DNA of 64,000 nucleotides from Escherichia coli (GCF_003334405.1 NZ_QOWM01000004.1), one strand, 5' to 3'; counted from the first letter of the stretch, positions 1,546 to 50,866 are shown. Program-made: numbers and translations. The notes: generated by a model from the letters alone, not told the origin.

Positions 1546-2643
1546 GTGATTAAATTTCTCTCTGCATTAATTCTTCTACTGGTCACGACGGCGGCTCAGG
1601 CTGAGCGTATTCGCGATCTCACCAGTGTTCAGGGGGTAAGGCAAAACTCACTGATTGGCTATGGTCTGGTGGTGGGGCTGGATGGCACCGGTGACCAGAC
1701 AACCCAGACGCCGTTTACCACACAAACGCTTAATAACATGCTCTCACAGCTGGGAATTACCGTTCCGACGGGCACCAATATGCAGCTAAAAAACGTCGCT
1801 GCGGTAATGGTGACAGCGTCACTTCCTCCGTTTGGACGTCAGGGGCAAACCATCGATGTGGTGGTTTCTTCCATGGGAAATGCCAAAAGCTTGCGTGGAG
1901 GTACGTTGTTGATGACACCGCTTAAGGGCGTTGACAGTCAGGTGTATGCGCTGGCGCAGGGCAATATTCTGGTTGGCGGCGCAGGAGCCTCCGCTGGCGG
2001 TAGCAGTGTTCAGGTTAACCAACTGAACGGTGGACGGATCACCAATGGTGCGGTTATTGAACGTGAATTGCCCAGCCAGTTTGGCGTCGGGAATACCCTT
2101 AATTTGCAACTTAACGACGAAGATTTCAGCATGGCGCAGCAAATCGCTGACACCATCAACCGCGTGCGTGGATATGGCAGCGCCACCGCGTTAGATGCGC
2201 GGACTATTCAGGTGCGCGTACCGAGTGGCAACAGTTCCCAGGTCCGCTTCCTTGCCGATATTCAGAATATGCAGGTTAATGTCACCCCGCAGGACGCTAA
2301 AGTAGTGATTAACTCGCGCACCGGTTCGGTGGTGATGAATCGCGAAGTGACCCTCGACAGCTGCGCGGTAGCGCAGGGGAATCTCTCAGTAACAGTTAAT
2401 CGTCAGGCCAATGTCAGCCAGCCAGATACACCGTTTGGTGGTGGACAGACTGTGGTTACTCCACAAACGCAGATCGATTTACGCCAGAGCGGCGGTTCGC
2501 TGCAAAGCGTACGTTCCAGCGCCAGCCTCAATAACGTGGTGCGCGCGCTCAATGCGCTGGGCGCTACGCCGATGGATCTGATGTCCATACTGCAATCAAT
2601 GCAAAGTGCGGGATGTCTGCGGGCAAAACTGGAAATCATCTGA
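1546..2643 (+). CDS. flgI: flagellar P-ring protein FlgI
   Basis: ORF trimmed to second GTG ([19 protein letters not shown] signal peptide), 365 aa. Confidence 0.9.
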
Positions 2644-3584
2644 TGATCAGCGACAGCAAACTACTGGCAAGTGCGGCCTGGGATGCGCAATCACTCAACG
2701 AACTAAAGGCGAAAGCGGGCGAAGATCCGGCGGCAAATATCCGTCCGGTGGCCCGTCAGGTGGAAGGGATGTTCGTGCAGATGATGTTGAAAAGCATGCG
2801 CGACGCTTTACCAAAAGATGGCCTGTTCAGCAGCGAGCACACTCGCCTGTATACCAGTATGTATGACCAGCAGATTGCCCAACAGATGACGGCGGGCAAA
2901 GGTCTGGGGCTTGCAGAGATGATGGTTAAACAGATGACGCCAGAACAACCATTGCCAGAGGAGTCCACGCCAGCAGCACCGATGAAATTCCCGCTCGAAA
3001 CTGTGGTGCGTTATCAAAATCAGGCGCTTTCGCAGCTGGTGCAAAAGGCCGTGCCACGTAACTACGATGATTCGCTGCCGGGTGACAGTAAAGCATTCCT
3101 CGCGCAACTCTCGCTGCCCGCCCAACTGGCAAGCCAGCAAAGCGGTGTGCCACATCATTTGATCCTCGCTCAGGCGGCACTGGAATCTGGTTGGGGGCAA
3201 CGGCAAATCCGCCGCGAAAACGGCGAGCCGAGCTATAACCTGTTTGGTGTCAAAGCCTCTGGCAACTGGAAAGGGCCAGTTACTGAAATCACCACGACTG
3301 AATATGAAAACGGCGAAGCGAAGAAAGTAAAAGCGAAGTTTCGCGTCTACAGCTCGTATCTGGAAGCCTTGTCGGATTACGTTGGGCTGTTAACGCGTAA
3401 CCCGCGCTACGCCGCCGTGACGACCGCCGCGAGTGCGGAACAGGGGGCGCAGGCCCTACAGGACGCGGGCTATGCCACCGATCCTCACTATGCCCGCAAA
3501 CTCACCAACATGATTCAGCAGATGAAATCGATAAGCGACAAGGTGAGCAAAACCTACAGTATGAACATTGATAATCTGTTCTGA
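2643..3584 (+). CDS. flgJ: flagellar rod-assembly protein / peptidoglycan hydrolase FlgJ
   Basis: ORF 2613..3584 trimmed to ATG overlapping flgI stop (TGATG), 313 aa; C-terminal glucosaminidase-like region. Confidence 0.88.
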   Translation: MISDSKLLASAAWDAQSLNELKAKAGEDPAANIRPVARQVEGMFVQMMLKSMRDALPKDGLFSSEHTRLYTSMYDQQIAQQMTAGKGLGLAEMMVKQMTPEQPLPEESTPAAPMKFPLETVVRYQNQALSQLVQKAVPRNYDDSLPGDSKAFLAQLSLPAQLASQQSGVPHHLILAQAALESGWGQRQIRRENGEPSYNLFGVKASGNWKGPVTEITTTEYENGEAKKVKAKFRVYSSYLEALSDYVGLLTRNPRYAAVTTAASAEQGAQALQDAGYATDPHYARKLTNMIQQMKSISDKVSKTYSMNIDNLF

Positions 3585-9639: not shown

Positions 9640-10005
9640 CGTAACTTACTCATTATTCTTACATTGACGACTAAGCTGCGGGCAAAGTAACGCCTTTCCG
9701 GGTGTGAACCGATGGCCTCGTGTCTAGTCGCGTCGCCAACCTCACGGTTATCGTCAGCTCAAAGAGGCGCAGAGTGTCGGTTGCCCGTTTTTCATGCGGA
9801 AAAACAGCGCAATTATCAAAGAAACAGACTGGGTATTACTCTCCAGAAATATTTCCATCTACCGGTAAGGACTGCAACCCGCAGCCCGCTAACTGCCTGA
9901 AAGATCAATACGTCTTACGCCATTGCTGCGTGGATGATCGGTCGGGCAAAATGGGTTATTCCGTAAAATTTCTTGTTTTAACAAGGATGGACACGGAAAC
10001 GGCCT
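9640..10005 (-). promoter_or_regulatory. rne long 5-prime leader and promoter region (autoregulatory leader)
   Basis: about 570 bp non-coding gap between divergent rne and rluC; established knowledge that rne carries a roughly 360-nt structured leader; exact ends not determined here. Confidence 0.6.
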
Positions 10006-11282: not shown

Positions 11283-11867
11283 CTATCCCATCAGCGGGTT
11301 TTTCCCTTCCCGACGTAACATCTGACACAGCGCGATTAGCGGTAAACCAACCAGCGTGTTAGGATCACGCCCCTCTAAACGCTCAAACAGCGTAATGCCA
11401 AATCCTTCACTCTTAAAGCTACCCGCGCAGTGCAGGGGATGCTCTTTACGCACGTAATTATCAATCTCCGCCTCGCTCAGGTGACGGAAATGGACGTCAA
11501 AAGGCTCCACTTCTGTTTGCAGATGCCCATTCGCCGAATTAAACAACGCCAGTCCAGTATAGAAGGTGACGATATTGCCGCTGGCTTTGCGTAATTGCAG
11601 ACGGGCATTTTCTTCCGTTAACGGTTTACCGGTGATTTCGCCATCAAGAACACATACCTGGTCTGAACCAATAATTAAATGATCCGGATAACGTGACGCC
11701 AGAGATTGCGCTTTTTCTTGTGCCAGTCGAAGCACCAACTGTCGCGGTGATTCGTCGCTGCGTGGGGTTTCGTCGACCTCTGGTGCTGCACATTCAAAAG
11801 AGATTTGCAGTTTTTCCAGAAGAGCGCGACGCCATGGCGAGGTGGAGGCTAAAATAAGTTTAGGCAT
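11283..11867 (-). CDS. yceF: Maf-family nucleoside triphosphate pyrophosphatase YceF
   Basis: ORF 11283..11906 trimmed to [20 protein letters not shown] (194 aa), Maf-like fold. Confidence 0.85.
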
Positions 11868-12036
11868 ATTTTTTTCCATCAGATATAGCGTATTGATGAT
11901 AGCCATTTTAAACTATGCGCTTCGTTTTGCAGGTTGATGTTTGTTATCAGCACTGAACGAAAATAAAGCAGTAACCCGCAATGTGTGCGAATTATTGGCA
12001 AAAGGCAACCACAGGCTGCCTTTTTCTTTGACTCTA
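11868..12036 (+). ncRNA. sraB: small RNA SraB region (yceF-yceD intergenic)
   Basis: 199-bp gap upstream of yceD; weak hairpin AAAGGCA-N9-TGCCTTT with T-run at 11991-12015; placement from established E. coli map, ends approximate. Confidence 0.45.

Positions 12037-28531: not shown

Positions 28532-28551
<20 letters not shown>
27910..28551 (+). CDS. lpoB: penicillin-binding protein activator lipoprotein LpoB
   Basis: ORF trimmed to ATG ([20 protein letters not shown] lipobox), 213 aa, Pro-rich linker. Confidence 0.85.
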
Positions 28552-40587: not shown

Positions 40588-43836
<3,249 letters not shown>

Positions 43837-44791: not shown

Positions 44792-45631
44792 ATGCTGTCG
44801 CGTCGGGGTCATCGGTTAAGTCGTTTTCGTAAAAATAAACGCCGCCTGCGCGAGCGTTTGCGTCAGCGTATTTTTTTCAGAGATAAAGTGGTGCCGGAAG
44901 CAATGGAAAAACCAAGAGTACTCGTACTGACAGGGGCAGGAATTTCTGCGGAATCAGGTATTCGTACCTTTCGCGCCGCAGATGGCCTGTGGGAAGAACA
45001 TCGGGTTGAAGATGTGGCAACGCCGGAAGGTTTCGATCGCGATCCTGAACTGGTGCAAGCGTTTTATAACGCCCGTCGTCGACAGCTGCAGCAGCCAGAA
45101 ATTCAGCCTAACGCCGCGCATCTTGCGCTGGCTAAACTGCAAGACGCCCTCGGCGATCGCTTTTTGCTGGTGACGCAGAATATCGACAACCTGCATGAAC
45201 GCGCAGGTAATACCAATGTGATTCATATGCATGGGGAACTGCTGAAAGTGCGTTGTTCACAAAGTGGTCAGGTTCTCGACTGGACAGGAGACGTTACCCC
45301 AGAAGATAAATGCCATTGTTGCCAGTTTCCGGCACCCTTGCGCCCGCACGTAGTGTGGTTTGGCGAAATGCCACTCGGCATGGATGAAATTTATATGGCG
45401 TTGTCGATGGCCGATATTTTCATTGCCATTGGCACATCCGGGCATGTTTATCCGGCGGCTGGGTTTGTTCACGAAGCGAAACTGCATGGCGCGCACACCG
45501 TGGAACTGAATCTTGAACCGAGTCAGGTTGGTAATGAATTTGCCGAGAAATATTACGGCCCGGCAAGCCAGGTGGTGCCTGAGTTTGTTGAAAAGTTGCT
45601 GAAGGGATTAAAAGCGGGAAGCATTGCCTGA
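44792..45631 (+). CDS. cobB: NAD-dependent protein deacylase CobB (sirtuin), long isoform
   Basis: 279-aa ORF; Arg-rich N-terminal extension then GAGISAESG Rossmann motif; a shorter isoform from an internal Met is possible. Confidence 0.88.
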
Positions 45632-45750: not shown

Positions 45751-46539
45751 TTATCGTTTACTCGTCAATAACAATGCGGCAATAAACGTACAGACACCAA
45801 TTAGCCCTGCCCAGAGTGGCGATATTCTGGTAATCGCAAAGCTATTATCGATATACAAACATAAAGCCTGATAACCCATATTGGCAATAGTCATCGCCAC
45901 TGCAAATTTTAACGCATAAATAAAACGAGTCGTGTAGTAAAAGATCCTGGAAAATAAGATAAACGTCGCAGCCCAGGCGATAAAACCTAATGTGTTGGTG
46001 CTGCCGGGGGGAGCATTTTCATGCTGTTGTCCTGGATGCGGATAATACGTTAGTGGCGGCGTCGATTGTTTTAATATCTGTGCTTGTAGAACAGCCAATG
46101 CATTATTGATTCCCTGATACCAGAGATCTGCATTTAAATAAGCCAGCGTGTGATTTTCTATCAGAAGGCCGAGATGTTTATCGTCCAGACCACTTTCAAC
46201 CTGGCCGTTGGTGATCATAATTAACCGTGGTTCGCGGGTAGTAAATAGTAACAGAACACTTCCTTTTACATCACTCAATGAAGATGACGCATGCGCCAGC
46301 ATCGCTTTACCATTTTGTCTGAGACTGGCTTCATTATTAATGTCGGGTAAAACCACAATAAACGGTGCAATTCCCGTTTGTTGGCGAAAAAGCTCGGCTT
46401 TATGCGCGATCTCTTCAGCATCTGGTACAGTACCGGTAACGTCCGTAAAAAGTGTCTTCATTATTGGAATTAATGGCTTGCTGGCTGCTGTCAGAGGCAG
46501 GAGTATCAGTAAACTGAGCAGTATAATGAATTTTTTCAT
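45751..46539 (-). CDS. ycfZ: inner-membrane protein YcfZ
   Basis: 262-aa ORF with signal/TM segments. Confidence 0.78.
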
Positions 46540-47054: not shown

Positions 47055-48101
47055 TTAACGTCCTGCTTTCAGCTTCTGATAATACTCTTCATAAATGCTG
47101 CTGGCTGCGCCAACGTCATTCTGCCATTCGCCATTTTTAATGGTTTCAGCATCCGGGTAGAGTGTTTTATCGTTCGCCACTTCTGGACTTAACAGCTTAC
47201 GCGCCGCAAGGTTTGGCGTTGGATAACCGATAGTTTCAGCAACCTGTTTTGCCACATCCGGGCGCAGCAGGAAGTTGATCAATTTCAGCGCGCCTTCTTT
47301 GTTTTTGGCATTTGCCGGGATCGCCAGGCTGTCCATCCAGAAAATGCCGCCTTCTTTCGGCCACACCACGTCAATTGGCGTACCCGCCTGGCGTGCAACG
47401 AAAGCAGAACCGTTCCAGATCATGCCGAGGTTAACTTCGCCTTCCATGTACGGGTTCGCCGGGTTATCGGAGTTAAAGGCTGCCACGTTTGGCATCAGTT
47501 TTTTCAGCTCGTTATATGCAGCTTCAATCTCTTTCGGATCGGTGGTGTTACCGGAGTAGCCCAGCTTACGCAGCGCCATCTGGAACACTTCACGGGCATC
47601 GTCGGTCAACAGCAGGCTGCCTTTGTACTCTGGCTTCCACAGATCGGCCCAGCTGGTGACAGATTTCGGATCCACCGCATCACCGTTAACACCAATCGCC
47701 GTCGCACCCCAGATATACGGAATGGAGTAGTCGTTATTCGGGTCAAAAGGCTTGTTGAGCATGTCTGGATCGAGATTGCTGAAGTTTGTTAACTTCGACT
47801 TGTCGATCTTCTGGATCATCCCTTCTTTACGCATTTTATCAACGTAATAGGTTGAAGGAACCACCAGATCATAGGCACCGTCTTTGTATGTTTTCAGCTT
47901 GGCGTACATGGTTTCGTTCGACTCGTAAGTCGAATAGATAACCTTAATACCGGTTTCTTTGGTGAACTGTTCAAGCAGTCCTGGCGGCACGTACTCGGTC
48001 CAGTTGTAGAAATACAGCGTGTTGTTGTCATCGGCGTGAGCGGCGCTCATGCCCAGTGCCAGAGCACCCGCCGCGAGCAGGTGGCGTGACCATTTTTTCA
48101 T
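47055..48101 (-). CDS. potD: spermidine/putrescine ABC transporter periplasmic binding protein PotD
   Basis: 348-aa ORF with signal peptide. Confidence 0.92.
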   Translation of the reverse strand: MKKWSRHLLAAGALALGMSAAHADDNNTLYFYNWTEYVPPGLLEQFTKETGIKVIYSTYESNETMYAKLKTYKDGAYDLVVPSTYYVDKMRKEGMIQKIDKSKLTNFSNLDPDMLNKPFDPNNDYSIPYIWGATAIGVNGDAVDPKSVTSWADLWKPEYKGSLLLTDDAREVFQMALRKLGYSGNTTDPKEIEAAYNELKKLMPNVAAFNSDNPANPYMEGEVNLGMIWNGSAFVARQAGTPIDVVWPKEGGIFWMDSLAIPANAKNKEGALKLINFLLRPDVAKQVAETIGYPTPNLAARKLLSPEVANDKTLYPDAETIKNGEWQNDVGAASSIYEEYYQKLKAGR

Positions 48102-48892
48102 TTAACGTCCCCTGTGTTACCTTTCGTTTTATCACGAGCAATAAGCTGGCTGGCAATAACCATCACCAGCGACAGCACCAGTAATATGGTTGCCAGCGCG
48201 TTAACTTCCGGCGATACGCCGACTTTGACCATCGAATAAATTTTTAACGGCAGAATTTCATAACTTGGTCCGGTGACGAACGAAGAAACTACCACATCGT
48301 CCATCGACAGGGTAAAGCTTAACACCCAGCCCGCCGCCACCGCTGGCATTGCCAGTGGCAGAATGATTTTTCGCAGAATGGTAAATTCGCTGGCACCGAG
48401 ATCTTTCGCCGCTTCCAGCATTCGCACGTCAAAACCTTTCAGGCGCGAATACACCGTCACCACCACAAATGGCAGGCAGAAGGTGATATGCGAGAACAGC
48501 AGCGACCAGAAGCCAAGCTGAATACCCAGCAGCATAAACAGCACCAGCAGCGAAATCGCCATCACGATATCTGGTGACATCATCACCACAAACAGCATTC
48601 CGCTAACGAACGGCTTACCACGAAAGCGATAACGGTACAGCGCAACTGCCGTCAGTGAACCGATAAGCGTAGCAAACGTCGCCGAAAACACCGCCATTGT
48701 TAGTGAATGCTGCGCTGCCTGTAACAGGCTGTCGTTGTTCATCAGCAGGCTATACCATTTGGTGGTAAAACCCTGCCAGTTGATGCCAAAGCGCGAGCTG
48801 TTAAAGGAGTTCACAATCAAAATAATGATTGGGATATACAGGTACGCGTAGATAGCGGTCATAAAACCGCCGCGAAGCAGTCGACCGATCAT
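48098..48892 (-). CDS. potC: spermidine/putrescine ABC transporter permease PotC
   Basis: 264-aa ORF with ABC permease EAA-like loop. Confidence 0.9.
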   Translation of the reverse strand: MIGRLLRGGFMTAIYAYLYIPIIILIVNSFNSSRFGINWQGFTTKWYSLLMNNDSLLQAAQHSLTMAVFSATFATLIGSLTAVALYRYRFRGKPFVSGMLFVVMMSPDIVMAISLLVLFMLLGIQLGFWSLLFSHITFCLPFVVVTVYSRLKGFDVRMLEAAKDLGASEFTILRKIILPLAMPAVAAGWVLSFTLSMDDVVVSSFVTGPSYEILPLKIYSMVKVGVSPEVNALATILLVLSLVMVIASQLIARDKTKGNTGDVK

Positions 48893-49716
48893 TCGAGTTC
48901 CACCTTCTTATTCAGCAAACGAGAAGCGCGCCAGTAAACCAGCAACATCAGGCCCATTACGATAGTCAGCGTAATGCTGGTAGCTGCACCAAACGGCCAG
49001 TCACGAATATTAAGGAACTGGACCTTGATGACGTTACCGATCAGCAGGTTTTTCGCACCGCCCATCAGGTCGGATACATAGAACAGGCCCATCGCTGGCA
49101 GCATCACCAGCAGACATCCGGCAATAATTCCCGGCATCGTCAGTGGAATAATGATACGGATAAAAGTCTGTAACTTGCTGGCACCGAGATCGCGCGCCGC
49201 CTCAAGCAACGGCTTATCCAGTTTTTCGATACTGGAGTACAGCGGCATCACCATAAACGGCAGCAGAATGTAAACCAGACCGATAATCACCGCACTGGGC
49301 GTGAACATGATACGGATTGGTGTGTCGATAACGCCCAGCCAGAGCAAAAACTCGTTGAGATAGCCTTTGGTGCTGAGGAAAATTTTCAGCCCGTAGATAC
49401 GAATTAATGAGTTGGTCCAGAACGGAACAATCAGCAGAAACAGCAGCAGCGGACGCACCTTGTGTGGCAACTTCGCCAGAAACCAGGCAAACGGGTAGCC
49501 CAGCACCAGGCAGGCGAGGGTGGCGATCAGCGCCATATTCAGCGAGTGCAATAGCACTTCAAAATAGAGCGGATCGAGCAGACGCGTGTAGTTATCCAGC
49601 GTAAAGACCATTTTGACAAAACTGGCGTCGTCGCGGGTCAAAAAGCTGGTGCCAATGATCATCAGGTTGGGCAGAAAGACAAACAACACAAGCCAACCGA
49701 CAATAGTGACAATCAC
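48889..49716 (-). CDS. potB: spermidine/putrescine ABC transporter permease PotB
   Basis: ORF 48889..49746 trimmed to GTG (275 aa); the upstream ATG at 49746 (285 aa) is the alternative. Confidence 0.85.
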   Translation of the reverse strand: MIVTIVGWLVLFVFLPNLMIIGTSFLTRDDASFVKMVFTLDNYTRLLDPLYFEVLLHSLNMALIATLACLVLGYPFAWFLAKLPHKVRPLLLFLLIVPFWTNSLIRIYGLKIFLSTKGYLNEFLLWLGVIDTPIRIMFTPSAVIIGLVYILLPFMVMPLYSSIEKLDKPLLEAARDLGASKLQTFIRIIIPLTMPGIIAGCLLVMLPAMGLFYVSDLMGGAKNLLIGNVIKVQFLNIRDWPFGAATSITLTIVMGLMLLVYWRASRLLNKKVELE

Positions 49717-49729
49717 TACATTCTGGAAC

Positions 49730-50866
49730 TTACTTGTGTTCTTCATCAGCCAGTACGACCTCCCAGCTTTCTACCCAATTAATGGCCATTTTTTGGTCGA
49801 GAGAGTGGTCAAAGTCAGGATCGTCTTCATTGAAGAATTCGCTGACCATCACCATCTTGCCATTTTCCAGTTCAACAACCGACTCCAGCGTCATGCCTTT
49901 GTAGTTACGCTCGCGAACGTAACCAATCAGCCCTTCAGCGTGGTTGTCGTCGTTAATCTCTTCAACACGTAAGTCTTCCGGGCGCAGCAGAACATGCAGT
50001 TTTTGCCCCGGTTCAACGGCGAAGTTAACGTAGATATTACATTCGCGGCCTTCAACGTTGGCGCGTACGCGCTGCTCGTCTAGACGTTCGATGACAGTGG
50101 CGTTAAACATATTGATTTCGCCAATGAAGCCGGCAACAAACAGGTTTTTCGGCTCTTCGTAGATTTCACGCGGCGTGCCGTCTTGCTCAATGCGACCATC
50201 GCGCATCACCACAATCCTGTCTGACATGGTGAGTGCTTCTTCCTGGTCGTGAGTCACAAAGACGAATGTAATGCCAAGCTTACGCTGTAACGCTTTCAGC
50301 TCGTTCTGCATTTGCTTACGCAGTTTGTAATCCAGCGCTGAGAGCGACTCATCCAGCAACAACAGACGAGGCTTGTTAACCACCGCGCGAGCAATGGCGA
50401 CGCGTTGCTGTTGACCACCAGAGAGCTGATGCGGTTTGCGTTGAGCGAAGGTTTCCAACTGCACCATCCGCAGGGCTTCCATCACGCGGGGCGTAATTTC
50501 AGCAGCGGGGGTTTTTTGCATGCGCAACCCAAAGGCCACATTTTCGAACACGGTCATGTGGGGGAAAAGTGCGTAGCTTTGGAAAACAGTGTTCACATAG
50601 CGGTTTTCCGCCGGAACGTGGGTGATGTCCTCGTTATCCAGCATGATGCGTCCGGAATCAACAGTTTCCAGACCTGCAATCAGGCGAAGAACGGTTGTTT
50701 TACCGCAGCCAGAAGGGCCAAGCAGCGTGAGGAACTCGCCATTGTTGATAGTCAGATCCAGCTGGGGAATGACCTCTTTACCATCAAAGCATTTGCGAAT
50801 TCCCGCCAATTGCACCAGCGGTGAAAGCGAACTCGGTTGTTTATTCAATTTTTTACTCTGTCCCAT
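49730..50866 (-). CDS. potA: spermidine/putrescine ABC transporter ATPase PotA
   Basis: 378-aa ORF; Walker [10 protein letters not shown], signature LSGGQQQR. Confidence 0.93.

Follow-up and report, generated by a model that had tools for sequence, protein, structure and literature searches.

Stop/start overlaps between adjacent genes in a 64-kb segment of the Escherichia coli chromosome and their relation to translational coupling

Eleven pairs of adjacent genes overlap in the segment of the Escherichia coli chromosome analyzed here (64,000 nucleotides, referred to below as the window), and we interpret these as ordinary intra-operon stop/start overlaps at which translating the upstream gene promotes initiation of the downstream one, a reading to which we assign a probability of about 0.75. 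Short overlaps of this type and the translational coupling associated with them have been textbook material since trpB-trpA, and those described here are a known, genome-typical operon feature; nothing about them departs from known biology. The analysis establishes the overlaps, their non-random spacing and conservation, and a lower level of independent initiation at the downstream starts; we infer that coupling occurs at these junctions and by which route.

The window extends from flgG to bluR and is collinear with K-12; all 5,426 complete E. coli genomes match its first and last 20 kb, several of them at 100% identity. Gene coordinates follow the RefSeq annotation of strain 1303 (positions 1-32000, 4 mismatches) and of FDAARGOS_1337 (positions 32001-64000, 0 mismatches). 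Relative to the published K-12 start table there is a constant offset from flgG to icd, with the window position equal to the NC_000913 coordinate minus 1,134,728. The e14 prophage, which follows icd in K-12, is absent from this strain.

The 62 annotated genes form 46 adjacent same-strand pairs, and in 11 of these the genes are co-directional, adjacent, and physically overlapping (Table 1). An earlier note on this DNA had listed ten overlaps, from flgI/flgJ to ycfZ/ymfA, and all ten are present in the RefSeq annotation at exactly the length it gave, among them the TGATG in which the flgI TGA occupies positions 2641-2643 and the flgJ ATG positions 2643-2645. Missing from that list was the eleventh, potA/potB, which overlaps when potB begins at its RefSeq ATG. 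The note had named the upstream gene second in minus-strand pairs (potC before potD, and ymfA before ycfZ).

Table 1. Overlapping gene pairs of the window and the state of the same junctions in other species. Spacings are in nucleotides, with overlaps negative and the number of loci in parentheses.
Junction	Coordinates	Strand	Overlap	Loci with overlap across species	Spacings across species
flgI stop / flgJ start	2641..2645	+	TGATG, 1-nt overlap		
mltG (yceG) stop / tmk start	20396..20406	+	ATGCGCAGTAA, 11-nt overlap		
tmk stop / holB start	21034..21037	+	ATGA, 4-nt overlap		
lpoB stop / thiK GTG start	28532..28551	+	20-nt overlap		
lolC stop / lolD start	41891..41898	+	ATGAATAA, 8-nt overlap	17/17 (11 genera)	all -8
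lolD stop / lolE start	42590..42594	+	TAATG, 1-nt overlap	18/20	all -1
ymfA stop / ycfZ start	46536..46539	-	ATGA, 4-nt overlap		
potC stop / potD start	48098..48101	-	ATGA, 4-nt overlap	27/87 (short overlaps)	-4 (26); otherwise gaps of 0 to ~350 nt
potB stop / potC start	48889..48892	-	ATGA, 4-nt overlap	109/114	-4 (100)
potA stop / potB ATG start	49730..49746	-	17-nt overlap	103/105	-17 (85), -14 (5), -11 (1), -8 (12); always ATG
phoP stop / phoQ start	55046..55050	-	TGATG, 1-nt overlap	17/20	-4 (10), -1 (7)

The spacing of these genes is non-random, as is already known for all prokaryotes. Among the 25 same-strand pairs spaced between -20 and +30, seven lie at exactly -1 or -4, where approximately one would be expected if spacing were uniform (P = 4e-5, or 1e-4 once impossible spacings are removed). 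Eight of the overlapping pairs fall within the range of efficient coupling of about -8 to +6 (flgI/flgJ, tmk/holB, lolC/lolD, lolD/lolE, ymfA/ycfZ, potC/potD, potB/potC, and phoP/phoQ), and mltG/tmk (-11), potA/potB (-17), and lpoB/thiK (-20) lie beyond it. Judging from the annotated products and general knowledge, we take five of the eleven pairs (lolC/lolD, lolD/lolE, potA/potB, potB/potC, and potC/potD) to encode subunits of one complex; the products of mltG/tmk, tmk/holB, and lpoB/thiK presumably share no complex, and those of phoP/phoQ and flgI/flgJ are presumably functional partners only. Genome-wide, 30% of short-distance pairs encode subunits of one complex (Huber 2023). All four of the longer overlaps, at -8, -11, -17, and -20, share a single phase, which is unable to shorten to -1 or -4, and the phase of -8, -11, -14, and -17 is the commoner one among long overlaps (Huber 2023). 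Such overlaps are widespread only in the sense of the genome norm. The window is not enriched in them and we reject that possibility: 11 of its 46 pairs (23.9%) are spaced at -8 to +6, compared to 707 of the 2,987 unidirectional pairs counted in E. coli (23.7%; Huber 2023).

Whether a start can be used without translation of the gene upstream is addressed by published cell-free data (INRI-seq), in which initiation is recorded on synthetic fragments beginning 30 nt upstream of the annotated start. Of the 11 overlapped downstream starts, 6 are detected and the median is 5.9 CPM, compared to 35 of 47 and 22.1 CPM for the other genes in the window (one-sided Mann-Whitney p = 0.015) and to 13 of 14 for closely spaced starts that do not overlap (p = 0.010), although these are small samples and about 30% of all E. 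coli genes are without a peak anyway. The signal is zero for holB, thiK, lolE, and phoQ, at none of which do the published start-site data show a Ribo-RET signal either, and also for potB, where the assayed start was the K-12 GTG only. It is weak for flgJ (5.9 CPM), lolD, and tmk, and clear for ycfZ (21 CPM), potC, and potD. Of all the overlapped starts, that of potD is the most active without upstream translation (52 CPM), and its junction is the least conserved across species.

Among the four starts without signal in both data sets, phoQ has no SD pairing (dG +0.1), and lolE, thiK, and holB show the greatest structure around the start of any overlapped gene (MFE of -13.7, -10.0, and -8.4, respectively); the SD of holB is good (dG -7.8), and that of flgJ is weak (dG -3.3). 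As groups, overlapped and non-overlapped starts are not separated by SD strength (mean dG -5.8 vs -5.4) and are alike in the accessibility of the start region (p = 0.64). Their MFE (-30 to +15) differs marginally (p = 0.047), because of the higher GC content of coding sequence, and neither MFE nor accessibility correlates with the INRI-seq signal across the window. With a difference that is marginal, explained by GC, and uncorrelated with initiation, we rejected local structure as evidence for the unfolding model.

To follow the junctions across species, species-representative genomes were searched using a degenerate nucleotide pattern that encodes the PotB peptide NIRDWPFGAA, situated about 120 nt away from the closest junction, yielding 120 loci with 43 genus-level labels, mostly Enterobacterales; for each junction, the spacing was read from the start codon closest to the homologous counterpart of the E. 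coli start position. Counted by genus label, the overlap is kept in 41 of 42 for potB/potC, 37 of 39 for potA/potB, 11 of 11 for lolC/lolD, 12 of 13 for lolD/lolE, and 11 of 13 for phoP/phoQ, with all such counts referring to mutually related species and not to independent events. For flgI/flgJ, metagenome contigs were scanned with a FlgJ motif approximately 130 nt downstream of the start, giving 103 loci with flgI directly upstream, in which FlgI is 37-92% identical to that of E. coli. Of these, 40 have the in-frame flgJ start at -1, 13 have it at 0, 11 at +1 or +2, and three at -4, which places 67 of the 103 within -4 to +2; by chance the -1 form would be expected in about 1 in 16 (P ~ 8e-22). 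By these comparisons six junctions (potB/potC, potA/potB, lolC/lolD, lolD/lolE, phoP/phoQ, and flgI/flgJ) are conserved across genera. The ymfA and ycfZ genes are found together in only two of the cross-species loci.

The potC/potD junction behaves differently and drifts freely, with gaps of +15 in Salmonella, +18 in Citrobacter, and +100 to +350 in Proteus, Providencia, Serratia, and Xenorhabdus, whereas phoP/phoQ over the same time span toggles between -1 and -4 yet stays overlapped. Because the lability of potC/potD shows that junctions can drift, the stable ones are probably under constraint.

Although the potB/potC overlap is the best conserved between species, direct coupling from potB to potC is dispensable in about 30% of E. 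coli strains. A 12-bp att core (48903-48914) within the last 25 nt of potB, 11 nt upstream of the potB/potC ATGA and overlapping the potC SD, carries an integrated prophage in strain 1303 as well as in seven viral contigs. A 401-bp query spanning this site is split at it in 1,626 of the 5,426 complete E. coli genomes (~30%), the insertion being a prophage in the examples that were examined. In occupied strains potB ends in phage-supplied codons (...NKKATEIDD-stop) and potC is no longer preceded by potB, and direct coupling between the two is therefore dispensable there. A phage-supplied mini-ORF ends at the potC ATGA in lysogens; we considered and rejected this as an adaptation preserving coupling, the simpler account being that attP represents a diverged version of the 3' end of potB.

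An overlap is only as secure as the start codon that defines it, and it is possible in principle that some of these are annotation artefacts, with the true start further downstream and the genes not overlapping. We consider this very improbable. In nine of the eleven genes the next in-frame start is 10-28 codons downstream and is usually without an SD, and the annotated start is supported at many of the junctions. An N-terminal peptide of LolD was observed in the TRAINSPOTTER N-terminomics table, in which lolD is the sole overlapped downstream gene covered, and Ribo-RET in vivo peaks and INRI-seq peaks coincide at the annotated starts of both lolD and tmk; INRI-seq peaks alone are present at those of flgJ, ycfZ, potD, and potC. 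NCBIfam profiles align from position 1 for HolB, PhoQ, PotC, and PotB (the PotB model has 285 positions, aligned 1-285), several delta-prime profiles align from residues 1-4 of HolB, and TIGR00041 aligns from residue 2 of Tmk. Points in favor of an artefact concern four genes. In lolE, the exception to the distant next start, a second ATG (42598) lies two codons downstream with better SD spacing, but it is a start codon in just 2 of 20 loci, the conserved one being the first ATG, and we rejected it. The thiK GTG is the least-supported start of the eleven: neither INRI-seq nor Ribo-RET gives a signal there, and alignment to TIGR02721, the broad ThiK model, begins only at residue 26; the next in-frame thiK start is a TTG 13 codons downstream, without an SD. 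The remaining two are potB, for which the databases conflict, and potA, whose own annotated ATG is contradicted by N-terminomics, with published evidence that this start is 6 codons too long.

The earlier note also argued that the overlaps favor trimmed starts over longer ones in the open reading frames, and proposed ribosome profiling or N-terminal proteomics as a check. Such a longer start exists only for flgJ (2613 rather than 2643) and lolD (41750 rather than 41891); in the other nine downstream genes no in-frame start codon precedes the annotated one. For these two genes the trimmed starts stand. The lolD peptide begins at the trimmed start, contradicting the longer ones, in agreement with the Ribo-RET and INRI-seq peaks there, and the trimmed flgJ start has an INRI-seq peak together with a conserved ATG at -1. 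The longer flgJ start at 2613 is without an SD and was rejected, long-overlap start candidates being almost absent from the diverse flg loci, a set of metagenome loci rather than the enteric relatives in which this particular ATG could be compared. The start calls of flgJ, lolD, and lolE are confirmed. TRAINSPOTTER N-terminomics confirms the trimmed start for three further genes, hinT, comR, and pepT.

As a general rule, however, the argument from overlap to trimmed start is circular, and it is not valid for potB, because the conserved start there is the longer, overlapping ATG. The K-12 annotation places the potB start at a GTG at 49716, ten codons downstream and leaving a gap of +13, and RefSeq places it at the ATG at 49746 (-17). 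Only 49 of 106 loci have a start codon at the position of the GTG, and the ten extra PotB codons upstream of it are conserved as protein; from these comparisons the K-12 potB start is probably 10 codons too short.

The overlaps in the window have close parallels among systems studied previously. The trpB-trpA pair of the E. coli trp operon has the same TGATG geometry (-1) as flgI/flgJ and phoP/phoQ, shares the -1 spacing with lolD/lolE (TAATG), and is likewise co-directional and within one operon. It differs in that its coupling has been shown experimentally, with a ratio of approximately 1.7 in a reporter (Saito 2020), whereas the pairs described here are known from their sequence, and in that trpBA encodes one heteromeric enzyme, which flgI/flgJ and phoP/phoQ do not. 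The tmk/holB, ymfA/ycfZ, potB/potC, and potC/potD pairs share an ATGA overlap and an SD inside the upstream gene with hyfH-hyfI, astD-astB, ydbH-ynbE, and menD-menH, native pairs that couple by termination-reinitiation (Huber 2019); those were tested with premature stops and SD mutants, whereas the ATGA pairs of the window are likened to them by geometry only. Four of the five native E. coli -4 pairs in that study were coupled, and the natural ATGA pair bioB-bioF was not, indicating that this geometry alone is no guarantee of coupling. The lolC/lolD, mltG/tmk, potA/potB, and lpoB/thiK overlaps belong to the 'phase 1' class (-8, -11, -14, -17, ...) of Huber 2023, and across species potA/potB moves solely among the phase 1 spacings -17, -14, -11, and -8. 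A literature search on the pairs recovered no coupling experiment on any of the eleven, and mention only of trpBA and of an engineered P. putida tmk-holB TGATG junction.

In genome-wide work -4, -1, and -8 are the dominant spacings, and coupling is most efficient at -4 to +3, decays as the overlap lengthens, and in one study was no longer seen at -25. Because of this decay, the overlaps of -11, -17, and -20 cannot simply be read as coupling signals; phase 1 spacings other than -8 fall outside the range of -8 to +6 that is predictive of termination-reinitiation, and any coupling at them is expected to be weak or to proceed via structure melting. The claim that overlaps indicate coupling consequently needs to be divided. 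It is an accepted general inference, favored here by the weaker independent initiation, by the SD-less phoQ, and by the six conserved junctions, and the eight junctions spaced at -1, -4, or -8 may plausibly be coupled, with the qualification that potC/potD is labile; at the three of -11, -17, and -20 coupling is doubtful.

In the mechanism that we propose, the pairs would lie within the operons flgB-J, pabC-mltG-tmk-holB-ycfH, hinT-ycfL-lpoB-thiK-nagZ-ycfP, lolCDE, ymfA-ycfZ, potABCD, and phoPQ. Since the genes overlap, no terminator or promoter is possible between the members of a pair and they are presumably co-transcribed. Each downstream start, with its RBS inside the upstream coding sequence, would be within the footprint of the ribosome terminating on the upstream gene, and it is because of this position that upstream translation would promote initiation downstream. 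Two routes can be envisaged. One is re-initiation by the terminating ribosome itself or by its 30S subunit (termination-reinitiation), which is how Huber et al. read coupling; in the other, the terminating ribosome would melt local mRNA structure such that a free 30S subunit can bind. Depletion of RRF was without effect on coupling in E. coli (Saito 2020), a result that favors de novo initiation aided by structure melting and makes it doubtful that re-initiation is the main route. The dependence on upstream translation is likely to be strong for phoQ, which has no SD, and for lolE, holB, and thiK, which are structured and do not initiate independently in vitro; it may be partial for flgJ, lolD, tmk, ycfZ, and potC, and weak for potD, whose start is efficient in isolation and whose junction is uncoupled in many species.

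The principal alternative is that compact genomes and mutation dynamics produce the overlaps as neutral by-products, with the downstream genes initiated de novo and coupling not selected. Loss of a stop codon would extend a gene to the next stop, an ATG followed by A yields TGA, and purifying selection would then maintain both the start and the stop codon. This is compatible with several of the observations: 6 of the 11 downstream starts initiate independently in vitro and most have a usable SD, with a mean dG close to that of non-overlapped genes; the potC/potD spacing varies between genera from -4 to beyond +300; an insertion (a prophage where examined) parting potB from potC is tolerated by 30% of E. 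coli genomes; bioB/bioF is uncoupled despite its ATGA; Saito 2020 favors de novo initiation; and -8, -11, -17, and -20 are all in the phase predicted by the mutational model (Huber 2023). We nonetheless regard it as unlikely. It does not explain how phoQ, which must be made, is translated with neither an SD nor independent initiation, nor why overlapped starts initiate independently less than closely spaced non-overlapped ones. Neutral drift also accords poorly with a phoP/phoQ junction that swaps -1 and -4 but is overlapped in 17 of 20 loci, with a flgJ start within -4 to +2 in 67 of 103 distant loci, and with experimental coupling of 4 of 5 native -4 pairs. Promotion of downstream initiation by upstream translation is thus the reading that we prefer.

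A stronger form of coupling is conceivable, in which the only ribosomes to translate phoQ are those that have just completed phoP, and lolE, holB, and thiK may be similar. We put this forward tentatively and think it rather less likely to be right than wrong; it is suggested by the lack of SD pairing at phoQ, the lack of initiation on the isolated fragment, and the -1 or -4 overlap in 17 of 20 species. If phoQ were obligately dependent in this manner, the PhoQ:PhoP ratio would be hard-wired by the efficiency of re-initiation, and E. coli would have natural obligate termination-reinitiation junctions, using a route that the RRF-depletion work called not major. Such junctions would then be clean test cases for the dispute over re-initiation.

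The overlaps carry little weight as a discovery, as the window contains them at the genome-average rate. The ranking of junctions by their dependence on upstream translation is nevertheless useful for engineering or deleting genes in these operons, and polar effects are predicted on phoQ, lolE, and holB.

The K-12 annotation of potB (NC_000913) probably begins ten codons too far downstream. It places the start at a GTG at 49716, 13 nt after the potA stop, and predicts a product of 275 aa, whereas RefSeq/PGAP begins the gene at an ATG at 49746, giving 285 aa and a 17-nt overlap with potA. The GTG has no Shine-Dalgarno sequence (SD) and zero INRI-seq (in vitro initiation) signal. The ATG is kept in all 105 species-level loci, and under half of them have a start codon at the GTG position; the ten additional N-terminal residues, MK(N/K)(T/S)(S/R)K(L)FQN, are conserved.

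Coordinates of the start regions, RNA elements, antisense open frames and prophage attachment core in the window
Feature	Window coordinates	Strand	Evidence or sequence
potB start region	49716-49746	-	K-12 and RefSeq disagreement
potA start	50846-50866	-	published N-terminomics
mltG start region	19384-19395	+	INRI-seq
RNase E 5' UTR autoregulatory element (rne5)	9664-10000	-	Rfam, 260 bits
SraB small RNA	11861-12029	+	Rfam, 211 bits
ORF antisense to rne, 560 aa	6466-8148	+	long open frame
ORF antisense to ptsG, 374 aa	23447-24571	-	long open frame
ORF antisense to icd, 393 aa	60311-61492	-	long open frame
Prophage attachment core	48903-48914 (16903-16914 in locus L002; also in viral contigs L004-L010)		gene-strand sequence TGAATAAGAAGG

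Published N-terminomics data place the start of potA at a TTG six codons 3' of the annotated ATG, a position also backed by Ribo-RET, INRI-seq and REPARATION; the first base of this TTG is at 50848, and INRI-seq signal is absent at the annotated ATG. For mltG, INRI-seq signal is absent at the annotated ATG, which lies 2 nt past the pabC stop, but present at an in-frame GTG at 19393, three codons downstream. The tmk fragment also shows strong in vitro initiation at an internal GTG in the mltG frame, which precedes the tmk start by approximately 16 nt. For cobB, on the + strand, RefSeq uses an ATG at 44792 and K-12 an in-frame ATG at 44903, 37 codons downstream, with a weak INRI-seq peak recorded at the K-12 start; the two starts may correspond to long and short isoforms of CobB.

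Six of the 46 same-strand gene pairs in the window (13%) are separated by +9 to +12 (flgH/I, flgK/L, fabD/G, holB/ycfH, thiK/nagZ and rluE/nudJ). This interval is a small E. coli-specific spacing peak that accounts for 6.8% of pairs genome-wide (Huber 2023), and the excess in the window over the genome is not significant (p=0.13).

Both rne5 and SraB score above their Rfam gathering thresholds, and both are already known from this chromosomal region. RefSeq annotates none of the three long frames opposite rne, ptsG and icd, which are probably 'shadow' ORFs of codon-biased genes on the other strand. At 61646-61750 iraM lies directly 3' of icd, and the window lacks the e14 prophage, which in K-12 is located where icd ends; the window is therefore not from K-12, though it is collinear with K-12 as far as icd.

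The prophage attachment core lies within the final 25 nt of potB, where it overlaps the SD of potC. Of 5,426 complete E. coli genomes, 1,626 have this site occupied. PotB ends in ...NKKVELE* where there is no prophage, but in ...NKKATEIDD* or ...VSELDD* in lysogens. On the potC side of lysogens, the potB frame is held open by phage DNA (...KVSRLMNKKVELE*) and ends in the same ATGA.
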